This document shows positions 3,419 through 42,288 of a stretch of DNA of 64,000 nt, one piece after another. Within the stretch, counting starts at the first letter, position 1; the number at the start of each line of letters is the position of its first letter. The notes beneath the pieces were generated by a model that searched no databases, had not been told where the DNA came from, and saw only the letters and a list, made by a program, of their open reading frames with translations. Position numbers and translations under genes: made by a program. The stretch is from the sequence record OZ209023.1; one strand, given 5' to 3'. The DNA is from Escherichia phage T4.

Positions 3419-4434
3419 TGTGTTGCCTCTACATATAGCTGATTTGCATATTGAATAAGTGCTTCACGGTCAGAATCAGTGATGTCTGGAATTGCATTAA
3501 TATACTCTTCCATTAATGTCTGAAGCGATTGAACTTCAACTTCTTCACTGTCATCTGACTCGACAGAGTTATCAATCTTTGACACAACTCGTAATGAATG
3601 CACAACTTTTTCTAGTTCAGATTCGAACTTCGTCAGATTTTTGTCTACTTCAGTTACTATAACACGTACTGATAGATTTGTAAAATCTTTATAGTCAATT
3701 TTTCCTTTAAATGGATAATGAATTCTACGATGCCAGGTAGTATTGTTTGGAATAAATTCCGTTCGTTCTGTTTCTGTATCAAACATCCAGAACCCACGAG
3801 GGTCATTCTCGTCACCTGCGGTTAGTGTCCATGGTGTCCCAATATATCTGACGTTTGCAGCCTCAGAAATAGTATGGAAGTGACCAGACCACACTTCTTT
3901 ATAAGTCTTAAGGAAATCGGGTTCAAGACCATGAGATTTCATTCCTTTATAAAAATAAAATCCATTCAGTTCCCAGTGACCAACACAAAAAGAAGCAGAT
4001 GAAGTTTTGATATGCTCAAGAATTTCACCAGTATTTTCTTCGCACATCCAAGGAATCAAATCAATCAAACACCCGTCAAAATCTACTGTAGTAGGCTTAT
4101 CATACACTTTAACATTAGGATATTTAGCCAAAAGCTCAGTAGAAGCATTTGGATGCATTACATTTTTATAGTGGAGATCGTGATTTCCTACAATAGTGTG
4201 TAATGTAATTCCAGCATCATCAAGCGTTTGAACTATTTCACGGGCAAACTCCATAGTTTTATGTGTGATCGCTTTTCGCACATCAAAAATATCACCGTAT
4301 TGAATCCAGGTAGTAATTCCATTTTTCTTAGAATATTCTATCGCTTGCTTAATTCCATCAATTTGAATACCGCGAATCCACTCATCATCAGCTTTAACGC
4401 CTAAATGCCAATCACCTAAATTTAAAATTTTCAT
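3415..4434 (-). CDS. 47: Recombination endonuclease subunit gp47 (SbcD/Mre11-like phosphoesterase)
   Basis: 339-aa ORF; metallophosphoesterase motifs (GDWH, GNHD); length as T4 gp47. Confidence 0.9.
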   Translation of the reverse strand: MKILNLGDWHLGVKADDEWIRGIQIDGIKQAIEYSKKNGITTWIQYGDIFDVRKAITHKTMEFAREIVQTLDDAGITLHTIVGNHDLHYKNVMHPNASTELLAKYPNVKVYDKPTTVDFDGCLIDLIPWMCEENTGEILEHIKTSSASFCVGHWELNGFYFYKGMKSHGLEPDFLKTYKEVWSGHFHTISEAANVRYIGTPWTLTAGDENDPRGFWMFDTETERTEFIPNNTTWHRRIHYPFKGKIDYKDFTNLSVRVIVTEVDKNLTKFESELEKVVHSLRVVSKIDNSVESDDSEEVEVQSLQTLMEEYINAIPDITDSDREALIQYANQLYVEATQ

Positions 4435-8596: not shown

Positions 8597-8627
8597 AATA
8601 ATACCACGGTTTGAACTTGTTGTAAAC
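8597..8627 (-). promoter_or_regulatory. T4 early-type promoter (GTTTAC -35, extended -10 TGgTATTAT)
   Basis: Minus-strand GTTTACaacaagttcaaaccgTGGTATTAT, A-rich upstream. Confidence 0.55.
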
Positions 8628-8698
8628 AACTTTGTGAAAAATATTTTAGGGAATGATAAGAAAGGAACGATAGCTTAGAATGGTAATATACAGAATGT

Positions 8699-11736: not shown

Positions 11737-12769
11737 CAATGTGTTCAGTAGAGTTCGCTACTTCTCTACCCGTTTATATGAAACAATGTAATTTGGATAA
11801 TTGTCATCTAAACACAAATCTTTAATACGACTTGGGTGGAGTTTTAAATCTTTAGCAGCATCCACAAATGATTTATAGATATTGTCATTTATTTTAACAT
11901 ATTCTGGGACGGGATGAATTGTTATTTTTATATCTATAACATTTGGATGATTACTAACCTGTTCTTCAGAGCATTTAAGAAATTTTGCAGCTGATTTAAA
12001 ACTTCTAAATTTATTTCCGGATTTTAAAGCTATAGAAACAGTCTTTTTAGCCGTTCTACTACCAATATTATTTTTAACATGAGCTTCACTTCTACTATTA
12101 TTTTTATAATGCTCAATCAATTTCTCTCGTATCTTATCTTTATGTTTTAAAGATAAGATTTTACCTTTATGGGCATTACTAAGTTTTTGCTTATGTTCTT
12201 CTGAATCCGGATATTTGTTAAATTTATATCCACCTATAGATTTATTAAGAATAAATTCGTTATTAAAATATTTCCTAATAAGCATTTCTTCATGTTTAAG
12301 GGCCGATTCATAAGAATCAAAAACTTGAAGAATTATCCACTTAGCTTTATAATCTTTAAGCTTTTCTTTAACAAGCTTAGATGACGAATTGTATTCTTTC
12401 CAATTTGTATCTTTACCATATATAGTTTTGAATTTTTTAAAACCTATATAAAAAGACTTATCAGGAAATCTTACCATATAGGTAAATGCTACAGAATTGG
12501 CAATTTTTAAGCTTTTTCTTAATTTCCATTTCATCGTTTCACCTCGTATTCATATTTATACGAGGATAAACAGCTGCATGTCACCATGCAGTTCAGACTA
12601 TATCTTCAACTCTTAGAGTTGTCTGCCGTTTCGGGTCGCTTGACCCTACTCCCTTACATTCATCAGGGATAGTCGTTGGGCATTTACAGCTACTGCTGAT
12701 TTAGCAACGGATTGTCTCAGTGAGAGTTTCCCGTTTTAGGCAGATTTTACATGAGCTTGACTTACGTTA
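11737..12769 (-). mobile_element. Group I self-splicing intron in nrdD (inferred length 1033 nt) carrying I-TevII
   Basis: Exon 1 frame hits a stop at 12762-12764; boundaries inferred from a 605-aa NrdD, exon ending in U and intron ending in G. Confidence 0.65.
11758..12534 (-). CDS. GIY-YIG intron homing endonuclease I-TevII
   Basis: 258-aa ORF inside the nrdD intron; GIY-YIG-like N-terminus (YMVRF...FYIGF). Confidence 0.8.
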   Translation of the reverse strand: MKWKLRKSLKIANSVAFTYMVRFPDKSFYIGFKKFKTIYGKDTNWKEYNSSSKLVKEKLKDYKAKWIILQVFDSYESALKHEEMLIRKYFNNEFILNKSIGGYKFNKYPDSEEHKQKLSNAHKGKILSLKHKDKIREKLIEHYKNNSRSEAHVKNNIGSRTAKKTVSIALKSGNKFRSFKSAAKFLKCSEEQVSNHPNVIDIKITIHPVPEYVKINDNIYKSFVDAAKDLKLHPSRIKDLCLDDNYPNYIVSYKRVEK

Positions 12770-20280: not shown

Positions 20281-20808
20281 TTATGCGAGTACCGTATTTA
20301 ACCGTTCTTCAAACTTCCGAAGAGTGTTCTGGCGTTCAGCTCTTTGCTTTTTGTAAGTTTCAATACGCTCTGAAATGAGAGTGTATCGTTCATTTACTGA
20401 TTCTTTCATAAAATCAGGAATTTCACGAGAAGCTTTAATCTCGTCAAATTTATCAATAACAGCTTGCTCTTCAGCAATTAAGTTATCATACATCAAAATA
20501 TCTTTCTTGATGAACTCAATATCTTCTTGAGTTACACGAGATAATTTAGATGCTTTATCCTTTTTGTACTGTTCGTTAGTATCACGAGACCAGTGTAATG
20601 TACGATTTTTATTCGTATTCTTGTAAATTTCTACAATACCAATCTCATCGATAATAACGATCCAATTCCAACGGGATTTGTAAATTTGTCCTCCATTAAC
20701 AGTGATTTCACCTCCGATTGAGATGTCATTAAAGAACTTGCTTTGTGCTTCTGATTTAAATTTACCATCGTTGTAATTTACCAGGTTGAAAATATCTTTA
20801 GCGTTCAT
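20281..20808 (-). CDS. Hypothetical protein with coiled-coil C-terminus (nrdC.8 position)
   Basis: 175 aa from the ATG at 20806-20808 with GGAGG Shine-Dalgarno; track N-terminus is promoter read-through. Confidence 0.55.
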   Translation of the reverse strand: MNAKDIFNLVNYNDGKFKSEAQSKFFNDISIGGEITVNGGQIYKSRWNWIVIIDEIGIVEIYKNTNKNRTLHWSRDTNEQYKKDKASKLSRVTQEDIEFIKKDILMYDNLIAEEQAVIDKFDEIKASREIPDFMKESVNERYTLISERIETYKKQRAERQNTLRKFEERLNTVLA

Positions 20809-20836
20809 TTTGTGTTCCTCCGTAGTTGATAGTTGT

Positions 20837-20866
20837 ATAGTACCACAGAGGAACGGTCTTGTAAAC
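20837..20866 (-). promoter_or_regulatory. T4 early-type promoter
   Basis: Minus-strand GTTTACaagaccgttcctctgTGGTACTATAC. Confidence 0.55.
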
Positions 20867-24750: not shown

Positions 24751-24882
24751 TACATACTCCTCTGAATCATATTAATAATGTTATTCACCAGATTATAAGT
24801 AAACATTGGGTAATTATATTGAATCATCACATATATAACAAACAAAACTTTCATTCTCTTCTCCTTGGCAGTTGACAAGATT

Positions 24883-24912
24883 ACTATACCATAATCTTGT
24901 CAACTTGTAAAC
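24883..24912 (-). promoter_or_regulatory. T4 early-type promoter with -10 embedded in a 13-bp-arm inverted repeat
   Basis: Minus-strand GTTTACaagttgacaagattaTGGTATAGTAAT; palindrome agttgacaagatt / aatcttgtcaact at 24870-24905. Confidence 0.55.
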
Positions 24913-29201: not shown

Positions 29202-29663
29202 TCATTGAGTTTTAATTACTGCTTTAGAAGCCTTTCCTGGTAAACGACGACTGTTGATAATTGCCATCCTACATTGAAGTGACGGGTCTTTGAACTTCTC
29301 GTTAGGTTTACAAACTGTAAATCCAAGCCAAAGATTTCCATCTGTGATTTCTAAACGTCCAGGACGATATTCAACCCCATCAATAAAATCCTCGTCAATG
29401 TCAGGACGCGGAGGCATACTCAGGAATTCATTAACTTCTAAAACATGGTCTTTTATTTTATGGAATAATTCAAAAACGTATGTCTCATCAATCTCCCGTT
29501 GAATTGCGCGATCAAGAAGATGTTGAGAATATTTTAGATGAAACGATGAGACTCCTGCTGCTTTTGATGCCTCACGAATCTCATTGTTAATTTGACGAAA
29601 CTCCGACTCAAAGTGACGACGAAGCTTATTTCGACGGATAAAAACTTCTGTATTGATAGTCAT
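29202..29663 (-). CDS. regB: Endoribonuclease RegB
   Basis: 153 aa; MTINTEVFIRRNKLRRHFESEF..., length and position as T4 RegB. Confidence 0.85.
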   Translation of the reverse strand: MTINTEVFIRRNKLRRHFESEFRQINNEIREASKAAGVSSFHLKYSQHLLDRAIQREIDETYVFELFHKIKDHVLEVNEFLSMPPRPDIDEDFIDGVEYRPGRLEITDGNLWLGFTVCKPNEKFKDPSLQCRMAIINSRRLPGKASKAVIKTQ

Positions 29664-29690
29664 GTTATTCTCCTCTTAACTGATAGAAAA

Positions 29691-29720
29691 ATTATACCAC
29701 AGTCAAGAGGAAAAGTAAAC
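29691..29720 (-). promoter_or_regulatory. T4 early-type promoter upstream of regB
   Basis: Minus-strand GTTTACttttcctcttgactgTGGTATAAT. Confidence 0.6.
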
Positions 29721-31853: not shown

Positions 31854-32270
31854 TTATGCATAAATCGCCTTACCGTAGTATTTGTACCAAGTAGGACGTT
31901 GTGCAATTTTTTCATCTAAACGAGCTTGTGATATAGCAATAGAAGCTTCATGGGGAATATAATCACCACGGAATTCCTGAGGAATATCACTAATATCCTG
32001 GACTGTAGTATCCTTGATATTAAAACCACGTTTTAAACATTCAGCTATAAGCTCAATTTGACGTTTACGTAAGAACTCGAGCTTATCGTAAAAGAATGTA
32101 ACATGACCTGCGCCAAGGATAAAAGTAGGACTGATTTTAAAATCACGAACACGTTTACCGTTAGCAACATGCTTACGAACTGCACCAAAAACACGCGGCA
32201 ATTCACGATATTCAGCCATTAAGTGTTGGTCAGCCAATTCAGATACTAAAGTAAGGTTGATACGAGTCAT
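31854..32270 (-). CDS. denV: Endonuclease V (pyrimidine-dimer DNA glycosylase) DenV
   Basis: 138 aa; [34 protein letters not shown]... as T4 DenV. Confidence 0.9.
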
Positions 32271-32299
32271 TTTAGTGTTCTCCTGTAGTTGATAGGTCT

Positions 32300-32328
32300 A
32301 TAGTATCATACCTACAGGAGATGTAAAC
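32300..32328 (-). promoter_or_regulatory. T4 early-type promoter upstream of denV
   Basis: Minus-strand GTTTACatctcctgtaggtaTGaTACTAT; flanked by the inverted repeat tcctgtag / ctacagga. Confidence 0.5.
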
Positions 32329-32669: not shown

Positions 32670-32714
32670 TCCTAGAATTGTGATAATATATTCACAATTC
32701 TAGGAGTTGTAAAC
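32670..32714 (-). promoter_or_regulatory. T4 early-type promoter of ipII overlapping a 14-bp-arm palindrome
   Basis: GTTTAC at 32709-32714; tcctagaattgtga-N8-tcacaattctagga at 32670-32705. Confidence 0.5.
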
Positions 32715-33373: not shown

Positions 33374-33413
33374 AATTGTGAATATACTATCACAATTCCA
33401 AGAGAAAGTAAAC
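33374..33413 (-). promoter_or_regulatory. T4 early-type promoter of ipIII overlapping the palindrome AATTGTGA-N8-TCACAATT
   Basis: GTTTAC at 33408-33413; aattgtga atatacta tcacaatt at 33374-33397. Confidence 0.5.
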
Positions 33414-37218: not shown

Positions 37219-37244
37219 AATGTTTTCCTCATTTGTATAGGCTC

Positions 37245-37274
37245 ATAATATCTCAATCATGAGCCTATGTAAAC
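37245..37274 (-). promoter_or_regulatory. T4 early-type promoter with -10 inside a 10-bp-arm inverted repeat
   Basis: GTTTAC at 37269-37274, TATTAT; palindrome ataggctcat / atgagcctat at 37237-37268. Confidence 0.55.
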
Positions 37275-37581: not shown

Positions 37582-37611
37582 ATAGTACCATGGAAGAACA
37601 AGGATGTAAAC
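37582..37611 (-). promoter_or_regulatory. T4 early-type promoter
   Basis: Minus-strand GTTTACatccttgttcttccaTGGTACTATAC with A/T-rich upstream element. Confidence 0.6.
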
Positions 37612-37745
37612 AGTTTTGTGAAAAAATTTTTAAAAAGTTTTAGGGAATTCTAGGGCGGAGAGGGGCAATTAAAAGATAGGATAATATATTATAAAGGGTA
37701 TAAACTAAATGATGCCTAGAGAGGTCTGGAAAGGCTTAGATACCA

Positions 37746-38166: not shown

Positions 38167-38832
38167 TTAAAATTTCATTTTTCGACCTTTAAACCATCCT
38201 TCTGGAATTGGGTCAGTTTTCTTAATACGTTTAGAAACTTTTTCATCTAATGAATGAATCCACATCATACCGAATTGGGAATTCTTTTCACCTTTCTGGT
38301 GATTATTTTTGGCGTGAGATTCTTTCATTTTATTAATAGTTTCAGGAGTATGATGCTTATTTAGAAATCTGCTATTATTTAAAAATTTTTCCCTGTATTC
38401 AGGAGTTGACCACAAACGTTTAAATACATTTGAACCAATTTTACGATATTTTTCTTGAAGTAAAATATCATTTTCAAAACGTGACTTAAACGATTTAGCT
38501 CCTTTTAAGCTAGCATCTTTCTTCTGGTTTAGCATTCCAGGAATATTTACATGATCCCATCCACCTTCACCGCCAAGTTTTAAATTATACACATCTGGTC
38601 TATTTAAAAACTCTTCTGTGACAATATTTTTCTCGGCTTCAAGCATAGATTCTTTATCGTCAAAATACTCTAATATTTCTTTAGAAAAATTTTCTATACC
38701 ATATTTATCTTGGGCTCTTTTTAATAATTTACCAGAACCCATATATCCATCATCTAAATTTTCGGTAGAATGCACACCAATATAAATTTTATTATTAATT
38801 TTATTTGTTATTTTATAAGTGTAATAGAACAT
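38167..38832 (-). CDS. segB: GIY-YIG homing endonuclease SegB
   Basis: 221 aa; GIY-YIG N-terminus YTYKITNKINNKIYIGVH; sits inside the tRNA cluster. Confidence 0.85.
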   Translation of the reverse strand: MFYYTYKITNKINNKIYIGVHSTENLDDGYMGSGKLLKRAQDKYGIENFSKEILEYFDDKESMLEAEKNIVTEEFLNRPDVYNLKLGGEGGWDHVNIPGMLNQKKDASLKGAKSFKSRFENDILLQEKYRKIGSNVFKRLWSTPEYREKFLNNSRFLNKHHTPETINKMKESHAKNNHQKGEKNSQFGMMWIHSLDEKVSKRIKKTDPIPEGWFKGRKMKF

Positions 38833-38873
38833 AAATATCTCCTATTTCTAAGAGTATTTATGTTCTCAAAATA

Positions 38874-39835: not shown

Positions 39836-40242
39836 CCTCTATCAACAATAGCATGAGTATGGGCATTTACGATTTGCCACCAGTCGAAACGATTGGAACC
39901 ATAATCTGGTTTATTTTCATTTTCTTTAATGATATCACGCAGTTTATCTTCTGTTTCAGCATACGCAATTAAATCATCATATCCACCACAAGGATAATAA
40001 TTATCACCTGCGAATAAAAGAAAATTTACCTTAGATGGATTTACGTAATAATGGTCTTTAGGATATTTAGTTCCTCTCCAATCAGTTACTTCAACATAAC
40101 GGTAAGAAAATCCATTTTTACTTTCAATCCAACTCCACGCTTCAAAAGGAGTATTAAAAACTTTATCAGGTATTAAATTACCTTCAAAATGAGAAGGATT
40201 TGCATAATCCCCGGCATAAACATAATATTCGTTAATACTCAT
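39832..40242 (-). CDS. Hypothetical protein
   Basis: 136-aa ORF, Tyr/Trp-rich. Confidence 0.55.
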   Translation of the reverse strand: MSINEYYVYAGDYANPSHFEGNLIPDKVFNTPFEAWSWIESKNGFSYRYVEVTDWRGTKYPKDHYYVNPSKVNFLLFAGDNYYPCGGYDDLIAYAETEDKLRDIIKENENKPDYGSNRFDWWQIVNAHTHAIVDRG

Positions 40243-40428
40243 TTATTCACCTTTAGAAATTTTATCCATAACGATAGCAATTAAACCAATTAAAAATGCT
40301 ACTACAAGTGAAAACACATTTTCTGCTGTAGTTAATAATCCGCATATAAATCCAACAAACATTGAAAAACTAAAAGCAGAAGCAGAAATTGCAATAGCAA
40401 CATTTCGAATTAATTCACAGCGTTTCAT
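40243..40428 (-). CDS. Small membrane protein
   Basis: 61 aa, two hydrophobic helices. Confidence 0.5.
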   Translation of the reverse strand: MKRCELIRNVAIAISASAFSFSMFVGFICGLLTTAENVFSLVVAFLIGLIAIVMDKISKGE

Positions 40429-40456
40429 TTTATTCTCCTCAGTAGTTGATAGGGTA

Positions 40457-40486
40457 ATAGTATCACAGCTAAAACCCTATGTAAAC
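40457..40486 (-). promoter_or_regulatory. T4 early-type promoter with flanking 7-bp inverted repeat
   Basis: GTTTAC at 40481-40486; TGTGATACTAT; atagggt / accctat at 40449-40480. Confidence 0.55.
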
Positions 40487-40504
40487 AACTTTGTGAAATA
40501 TTTA

Positions 40505-40792
40505 TTACAAAAGATTTTTAGCAATAATCTTGAGATGTGCCGCAGAAATGTGTTTAGCTTTAAACAACGCAGTTTCTTCAGCAGGAGAGATAACGATTGT
40601 AGCACCATCCTTTTTAGCAGACCACCCATCACCTAGGTAAACAGTACCTTTGATTTCTTCGCCATCAACCAGACTAATCATTGGTTTACCTTCTCGTCCT
40701 TTATTTGCTTTAATAACTTCAGAAGTAAGAGTAGCTTCGGTAATGGTAGAAACCGGGGTAGTTGTAGAAGTAAATTCTTTAAATGTTTTCAT
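40505..40792 (-). CDS. ipI: Internal protein I (known inhibitor of the GmrSD restriction system)
   Basis: 95 aa; MKTFKEFTSTTTPVSTI with the capsid-targeting N-terminus shared by ipII/ipIII. Confidence 0.8.
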   Translation of the reverse strand: MKTFKEFTSTTTPVSTITEATLTSEVIKANKGREGKPMISLVDGEEIKGTVYLGDGWSAKKDGATIVISPAEETALFKAKHISAAHLKIIAKNLL

Positions 40793-40823
40793 TTTTATTT
40801 TCCTAATTAATTTTGATGAGGTA

Positions 40824-40853
40824 ATAGTATCACTACCTCATCAGTATGTAAAC
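40824..40853 (-). promoter_or_regulatory. T4 early-type promoter of ipI with -10 in the loop of a 10-bp-arm palindrome
   Basis: GTTTAC at 40848-40853; -10 TACTAT; tgatgaggta / tacctcatca at 40814-40843. Confidence 0.55.
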
Positions 40854-40865
40854 AACTTTGTGAAA

Positions 40866-41562
<697 letters not shown>

Positions 41563-41563
<1 letters not shown>

Positions 41564-42288
41564 TATAGTACCTTTAGTGTATTTTTAATTTTAGAAAAAA
41601 GTTCTTCAAGAGAACCATCGTTTGTAATTACTAAATCGCCATCACGAATTGGCAATCCAGCTTCTGTAATATGTGTATCATTGGATTTTTGACCAGGACG
41701 AACTACATGAATTACTGTAGCACCCATCGCCCTAGCCGCATCCATTTCATGATCTTGACGGGTATCAGGAACGATATAATAATCATAACCTGAGTTAAAT
41801 TTATCAAGATAATCTAAAGCAAATAATTTTACCCAGTACATGCGGTCGAAGTTATTAACAATCAAATCCGTACCTAGGGCTTGCATCAGACGACGGACTG
41901 ACCATTGATCTTCAATATTATTTATAACGTCAGTAATCTTATTAAATGCTACGAAATTAACTGATTCTTTTCCTTCGTCATCAAAAACAAACACACCTTT
42001 AATTGGGCTTTTACCATTAAGATAACAAAATGCTTGTTCCATAATCGTGATTACTTCTAATTTAGTCAGATTTAAATTAGTCTCACGATCATAGTCAATT
42101 CCTTCAAACTCTTTACGAGTTAAGCAAGGATAGTCAGTGTTTGCTGCAAATACTCCCCATGCATAAGCCAATGCATCCTTAATAGGACCAGCAAGTTGGT
42201 ATTTAACTGCAGAATAATTGCTCATGATAAAATCAGCAGTAGTATCTTTTCCACTACGCTTTACACCGCTTAAAAAGATTAGTTTCAT
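41563..42288 (-). CDS. 1: Deoxynucleoside monophosphate kinase gp1
   Basis: 241 aa from the ATG at 42286-42288; MKLIFLSGVKRSGKDT P-loop. Confidence 0.85.

Follow-up and report, generated by a model that had tools for sequence, protein, structure and literature searches.

The palindrome around the −10 element of the T4 ipI early promoter is probably the stem-loop of a PeSL-like linker between internal-protein cassettes

In a 64,000-nucleotide stretch of Escherichia phage T4 DNA (record OZ209023.1, hereafter the window), the early promoter of ipI carries its −10 hexamer in the loop of a perfect palindrome. We conclude that this 30-bp palindrome is probably the stem-loop part of a promoter-early stem-loop (PeSL-like) linker between T-even ip cassettes. 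The linkers would sit between the cassettes 57B, ip gene(s), and trna.4. PeSLs were described in phages RB49 and phi1 as sigma70-type early promoters combined with stem-loops (Arbiol 2010, PMC2839356), and the same paper credits Repoila et al. (1994) with PeSL-like elements at T-even IP loci. Going by that account, the ipI palindrome is almost certainly the very element described in 1994; it is a rediscovery of a described PeSL-like element, and nothing new is added by the palindrome. A module-boundary hairpin inside a conserved linker is the most economical reading of the data presented here, and an RNA-level role for the hairpin is not proven over a DNA-level role.

The ipI promoter element and its sister copy

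The element lies in a run of minus-strand genes ordered 57B, ipI, and trna.4, followed by the tRNA cluster. Gene 57B (40866..41324, upstream of ipI) and trna.4 (40243..40428, the next gene after the ipI cassette) were placed from the ORF list and the T4 annotation; the cassette gene itself, ipI, encodes internal protein I of 95 aa (40505..40792), and trna.4, which is conserved, bounds the variable locus on its right-hand side. Phage T4 matched the 601 bases around the palindrome at 100% (T4 coordinates equal window coordinates plus 33086), and the same 601-base query found related sequence in 588 phage records.

In the ~73-nt spacer from the 57B stop (40866) to the ipI ATG (40792), the stop codon is followed by an A/T-rich block and GTTTAC; next come the 5′ arm, GTGATACTAT, and the 3′ arm, and then the ribosome site and the ATG. 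The A/T-rich block, TTTCACAAAGTT (40854..40865, minus strand), directly follows the 57B stop and is part of the shared linker; the region upstream of the promoter reads TTAAAATAATTTCACAAAG. GTTTAC, which is the T4 early −35 consensus, occupies 40848..40853 (minus strand), and the promoter scan placed TTTACA at 40852..40847 with a 17-nt spacer to TACTAT and the TG of an extended −10 present. On the sense strand, the 5′ arm TGATGAGGTA (40834..40843) sits in the −35/−10 spacer at about −26 to −17, the minus-strand loop (40824..40833) reads GTGATACTAT and consists of GTGA plus TACTAT, the extended −10 being TGn plus TACTAT at 40829..40824, and the 3′ arm TACCTCATCA (40814..40823) spans about −6 to +4. 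Along the window strand as numbered, TGATGAGGTA (40814-40823) and TACCTCATCA (40834-40843) were complementary at 10/10 positions in both direct inspection and the repeat finder, with the 10 nt ATAGTATCAC between them. The ribosome site AGGAAAATAAAA and the ATG (40792..40790) together take up 40790..40804 (minus strand); the stem stops 21 nt short of the AUG, and the ribosome site lies downstream of it, unpaired by the stem. The original prediction of a perfect 10-bp palindrome, with the −10 in its loop and GTTTAC at 40848-40853, was thus correct to the base, and the promoter is of the early type. GenBank T4 records annotate no promoter features at the ipI locus.

A sister element lies at the trna.4 promoter (40446..40499, minus strand), with the core GTGATACTAT and the same upstream block. 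Its arms are ATAGGGT (40449-40455) and ACCCTAT (40474-40480), in agreement with the 7-bp version that had been predicted at this neighboring promoter. The repeat finder reported 40446-40499 and 40813-40866 as a 54-nt direct repeat, 81% identical; two copies of the linker therefore flank ipI. The 20-mer ATGTAAACAACTTTGTGAAA occurs four times in the window at up to two mismatches, versus zero copies expected, and the A/T-rich upstream block is kept at the 57B-ip junctions of other phages. We also observed that the block TTTCACAAAGTTGTTTACA(T), which lies upstream of the −35 element and includes it, is found on the minus strand at promoter sites before 55.6 (8620-8639), e.8 (37604-37623), trna.4 (40479-40498), and ipI (40846-40865), such that its conservation reaches past the usual promoter hexamers.

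Arm complementarity in the window and across T4-like phages

A lone 10-bp palindrome is weak evidence. Such repeats are not rare in the window: perfect ones with arms of 10 bp or more and a 3- to 20-nt loop number 6, versus 2.3 ± 1.3 in 30 dinucleotide shuffles. Because this count is only modestly above the shuffled one, arm-shuffle and covariation tests were used instead. When the ipI 5′ arm alone was shuffled, the observed pairing was never reached (0/200, z −6.0). Four of the six perfect palindromes fall on early-promoter-like sites (ipI, ipII, e.7, and mobD.2), with the −10 in the loop or at its edge. Strict early-promoter sites, defined as GTTTAC, 16 to 18 nt, and TAnnnT with G at −14, number 14 in the window, all on the minus strand. 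Complementarity of the spacer to downstream sequence reached z ≤ −4.8 under 5′-arm shuffling at 6 of these 14 (ipI, e.7, denV, regB, mobD.2, and nrdC.8), where not one shuffled arm equaled the observed value, and was weaker at the trna.4 promoter (z −2.0). When the arms were re-paired among the window promoters, the observed total was never reached (0/100,000). A common layout, in which the 5′ arm lies in the spacer, the −10 in the loop, and the 3′ arm at about −6 to +4, is shared by about half of these strict sites. It is found at the promoters of ipI, trna.4, e.7, denV, regB, mobD.2, and nrdC.8, at the sites resembling promoters that precede ipII and ipIII, and in numerous T4-like phages. 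These data indicated that the position and the relatives of the ipI palindrome are not due to chance.

Several of these sites were recorded in their own right. The second internal-protein locus (32670-32705 and 33384-33413, minus strand) has the same layout as ipI: the site before ipII carries a 14-bp perfect palindrome, TCCTAGAATTGTGA / TCACAATTCTAGGA, around TATATT, and the site before ipIII an 8- to 9-bp version on the AATTGTGA/TCACAATT arms seen before ipII. Perfect palindromes of 14 bp and 10 bp (24870-24905 and 37237-37268, minus strand) enclose the −10 before mobD.2 and e.7, respectively, and leave the ribosome site free, as at ipI. Elsewhere, a 12-bp perfect inverted repeat, AGAACATAAATA / TATTTATGTTCT (38826-38866, minus strand), includes in its 3′ arm the ATG of the homing-endonuclease gene segB, and the hairpin looks like start-codon sequestration. 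A further 12-bp perfect palindrome with a 5-nt loop, ATCTTATCTTTA TGTTT TAAAGATAAGAT (12131-12159), lies within the I-TevII / nrdD intron region.

The 57B-to-trna.4 locus was then compared in ten annotated T-even phages and in 36 IMG/VR loci found via 57B, the compared set comprising 47 related phage loci. Between the constant genes 57B and trna.4, ip content varies among 11 phages: T4 has ipI, T2 has ip5 and ip7, RB3 has ip5 and ipI, RB18 has ip6, and several others have two ip genes. Every junction is a 58- to 85-nt element of one kind, running from the stop codon through (TTTCACAAAGTT)GTTTAC, the 5′ arm, a GTGATACTAT-like core, the 3′ arm, and the ribosome site to the ATG, and elements like those around ipI flank different ip genes in other phages. 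Many unrelated arm classes, all of them self-complementary, are represented, among them TGATGAGGTA/TACCTCATCA, GATAGGGTA/TACCCTATC, GGGCT../..AGCCC, GGTCTATAG/CTATAGACC, GATAGGACT/AGTCCTATC, and GTGTAGGGAT/ATCCCTACAC. Across the 47 loci and 89 elements selected by promoter core, arm sequence differs while complementarity is kept.

Among 69 unique elements, cognate spacer/downstream duplexes averaged −13.2 kcal/mol, versus −8.8 kcal/mol for noncognate ones. For ten arm classes, the cognate 3′ arm was the best partner of the 5′ arm in 10/10 cases, and 0/200,000 permutations reached the observed sum; the class representatives were picked knowing that they fold, so that these figures speak to arm specificity and not to prevalence. 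An unbiased set of 89 elements was obtained by scanning IMG/VR for GTTTAC-N14-GTGATACTAT alone. Even in this set, which includes chance hits and stem-less promoters, in-register helix pairing reached 49.2% of cells versus 42.6 ± 1.4 shuffled (0/500), and the covariation score was 0.274 versus 0.192 shuffled (0/500) and 0.147 to 0.177 with slid partners. An arms-only duplex of −8 kcal/mol or better was found in about one-third of the core-selected elements. On the IP-locus set, the fixed-register pair count was 0.557 in register versus 0.35 to 0.44 slid, a signal diluted by the variable stem geometry of that set. In the 89-element alignment (columns 31 to 41), we noticed that many T4-like early promoters share nnnCYTAYCAAC right after the −10 (e.g., CCTATCAAC); a conserved motif of the initial transcribed sequence thus makes up part of the 3′ arm (40814-40823), and from the alignment the 5′ arm (..GRTAGG..) seems to have acquired its complementarity to that arm in evolution.

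Natural junctions also suggest how the linkers may recombine. At the T2 ip5-ip7 and RB3 ip5-ipI junctions and in F25 and FL12, the 5′ half of one type is joined to the 3′ half of another and the stem is destroyed (the chimeric T2 and RB3 junctions lie at L021 2507-2578 and L024 2894-2965). In IMG/VR locus L046 (~3678-3760), the −10 and 3′ arm are duplicated in tandem (GATACTATTACCTCATCAA, twice) at an ip junction. Judged by their sequences, the L046 duplication and the T2 and RB3 junctions resemble traces left by slippage or crossing-over within the −10 core. After 57B, the 5′ and 3′ arms change jointly with whichever gene comes next. Together with the chimeric junctions and the duplication, this joint change would place crossovers in the core as well as upstream of the stem. 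Arms usually match, but the stem is not indispensable: the chimeric junctions of sequenced phages show that viability does not require it.

Such junctions bear on an account in which the stems have no function of their own, being by-products of mutation or linker recombination, and only the promoter and the homology matter. Template switching could perfect quasi-palindromes seeded by the GTGA/TACTAT core, and quasi-palindrome mutations of the template-switch type have classically been studied in T4. The viability of stem-less chimeric junctions, the slipped duplication at the core of L046, and the many T4-like early promoters that have the same core and no stem all speak for it. We nevertheless regard a functionless stem as improbable: at least 10 to 15 unrelated arm pairs share one register, with the −10 at their center, and covary significantly, variants keep pairing through G·U instead of decaying at random, and at regB, denV, and nrdC.8 an outer stem covers the ribosome site so precisely that it looks like design.

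Transcript start, hairpin, and read-through RNA

The hexamer of T4-type early promoters spans −12 to −7, and from its position at ipI the start is predicted to be the A at ~40817, inside the 3′ arm. If so, ipI's own transcript cannot form the hairpin, which would be present only in RNA read through from 57B. We found no mapped T4 start or termination sites for ipI in the literature searched. In the sense RNA, GUG pairs with UAU and the stem grows to 13 bp with a 4-nt loop. The predicted fold was −18.7 kcal/mol (z −4.2) on the sense strand and −13.7 kcal/mol (z −2.0) on the opposite strand. An Rfam 15 search of 40200-41100 gave a chance-level match only (E 0.88, 20.9 bits versus a gathering score of 50).

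A hairpin of this stability, along with the report that the stem of one phi1 PeSL lowered the expression of lacZ placed downstream to a degree similar to rrnB T1 (Arbiol 2010, PMC2839356), would suit an intrinsic terminator or strong attenuator that stops 57B transcription and leaves ipI to be expressed from its own promoter only. The stem itself argues against this. It has 4 G-C among its 10 perfect pairs, the U-tract is absent, the tail being UCAAAAUUAAUU, and the terminator scan called no terminator at the ipI stem. Lacking a G+C-rich stem with a U-run, it does not fit the pattern of a Rho-independent terminator. The late-promoter motif TATAAATA is absent from the minus strand between ipI and 41919 (40793-41918), and a head contains ~300 copies of each of the three internal proteins. 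Late ipI expression should therefore depend on productive read-through RNA, which makes efficient termination at the stem unlikely. All told, a terminator or strong attenuator here seems doubtful.

Masking of the ipI ribosome site by the stem was likewise rejected, because the unpaired probability of the site was nearly equal in read-through RNA (0.59 to 0.61) and own-promoter RNA (0.56 to 0.59). At sister promoters, where an outer stem does cover the ribosome site, the corresponding read-through and own-promoter values were 0.23 versus 0.52 (regB), 0.38 versus 0.63 (nrdC.8), and 0.34 versus 0.78 (trna.4). As a separate observation, the 5′ spacer arm pairs with the downstream Shine-Dalgarno region in stems of 10 to 18 bp at the early-promoter sites of regB (29663-29720), denV (32270-32328), and nrdC.8 (20808-20866), all on the minus strand. 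These models predict translational masking for the read-through RNA of regB, denV, and nrdC.8 but none for the own-promoter RNA. We found no mention of this masking logic at these T4 early promoters in the PeSL/T4 literature examined. A broader proposal is that the −10-enclosing palindromes at about half of the T4 early promoters make up one regulatory layer, acting either through translation gating, in which the outer stem covers the ribosome site (as at regB, denV, and nrdC.8), or at the DNA level through a structure-specific factor in early-promoter shut-off. The published PeSL model of terminator plus recombination linker covers neither the gating nor the shut-off reading, and we think it unlikely that a single layer of this kind exists.

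Strand asymmetry was considered as proof of an RNA role and set aside as weak. Taking the whole stem, the sense strand folds better in 47 of 53 elements, largely because the promoter core itself forms G·U pairs (GUG/UAU). With the arms only, the bias is modest, as the sense strand is better in 32 elements versus 20, and G·U pairs make up 31/456 versus 17/423. Single-step variants (e.g., TACCTC to TATCTC and ATAGGGT to ATGGGGT) mostly still pair by G·U on the sense strand.

At the DNA level, the palindrome might instead be an operator for a dimeric protein, a cruciform, or a structure-specific site that switches ipI or early promoters in general. Both arms lie within the core promoter (about −26 to +4), T4 early-promoter shut-off has been described as not completely understood, the single-stranded DNA hairpin beats shuffles on both strands (−8.1 and −8.3 kcal/mol, z about −4.4), and Arbiol et al. 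(2010, PMC2839356) speculated that a DNA-binding protein targets the stems. Yet the arms are unrelated between promoters and offer no common recognition sequence; a search for a shared operator half-site among T4 early promoters and phages found none, the constant part being the promoter core. Only about half of the early-promoter sites carry a stem, junctions without matched arms persist in nature, and the G·U variants of the sense strand would be A·C mismatches on the other cruciform strand. With a 10-nt loop and about −8 kcal/mol, cruciform extrusion would also be costly. These considerations make DNA-level control very unlikely. They bear in the same way on the original prediction, whose early promoter, palindrome, and shorter sister version all stood, while its view of the palindrome as an ipI-specific regulatory device did not. 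Control of the ipI promoter tied to the anti-restriction role of its product is at odds with a generic layout whose arms differ between promoters, with a predicted start inside the 3′ arm, and with the natural unmatched-arm junctions of sequenced phages, and the published reading is one of cassette linkers and read-through attenuators.

Under the favored interpretation, that of a PeSL-like linker, the promoter would fire early from ~40817 and the hairpin would be missing from ipI's own mRNA. The RNAs that bear it would include any late ipI mRNA from a TATAAATA-type promoter, and the 13-bp sense hairpin could mark the module boundary in this read-through RNA. It might hold up 3′ exonucleases, serve as a landmark for processing, or weakly attenuate upstream transcription, and is not expected to block ipI translation. 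A processing or 3′-end role in read-through RNA is possible.

Cassette exchange and comparison with known systems

The conserved flanks and core of the linker would supply the homology by which ip cassettes are swapped, deleted, or inserted between phages. The ip genes are injected anti-defense cassettes; IPI blocks GmrSD, and recent work points to similar roles for Ip2 and IPIII. The flanking linkers are likely the handles by which T-even phages swap these cassettes, and their positions help in reading host-range evolution and in engineering cassette exchange. The points of residual interest are the predicted restriction of the ipI stem to read-through RNA and the predicted hiding of the ribosome site by the stems of sister promoters.

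The closest known relatives are the PeSL-like elements of T-even IP loci (Repoila 1994, EMBO J 13:4181, as cited by Arbiol 2010 and Comeau 2014), which belong to the same phage group and locus. According to Arbiol 2010 (PMC2839356), they combine T4 early promoters with stems that are weaker, AT-rich, and variable in size. As at ipI, such promoters and stems flank highly variable ip genes, and the descriptions given in the later papers revealed no difference from the ipI element. The same authors consider the T-even IP elements analogues, not homologues, of the RB49/phi1 PeSLs. Comeau 2014 extended PeSLs to the PST/T4 pair with the promoter consensus TTTACW-N17-TAYWAT, which the ipI promoter fits.

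In RB49 and phi1, the stems lie mostly between −35 and −10 or over the −10, and the PeSLs, which cluster in hyperplastic regions, occupy the interval from a stop codon to the ribosome site that follows and have been implicated in ORF insertion, deletion, and replacement and in mini-circle formation (Arbiol 2010, PMC2839356). The ipI element fits this description in its sigma70-type early promoter with a ~17-nt spacer and A/T-rich upstream sequence, in its perfect 10-bp stem that overlaps the promoter with the −10 in the loop, in its placement between the 57B stop and the ipI ribosome site and start, and in its repeated copies on either side of variable ORFs within a hyperplastic region. The likeness extends to the composite of promoter and stem-loop, its stop-to-ribosome-site placement, and the frequent −10 overlap, and, for the ipI linkers, to repetition in hyperplastic regions where small ORFs would be inserted, deleted, or replaced. 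The RB49/phi1 elements differ in having G-run/C-run stems and a near-perfect sigma70 consensus (TTGACA/TATAAT), and terminator activity and mini-circles have been demonstrated for phi1/RB49 alone.

A second group comprises the hairpins of T4 e, soc, 49, and I-TevI and of Aeh1 mobE, which have an embedded promoter whose own transcript lacks the 5′ arm, so that read-through RNA folds. The same logic is seen here at the regB, denV, and nrdC.8 early promoters, whereas the known cases use late or middle promoters and the ipI stem leaves the ribosome site free. Finally, REP elements, as in malE-malF, are intercistronic stem-loops that protect upstream mRNA from 3′ exonucleases. Like them, the ipI stem is a stable hairpin between two cistrons with no U-tract, and by this analogy we propose that it may stabilize upstream mRNA in the manner of a REP element.
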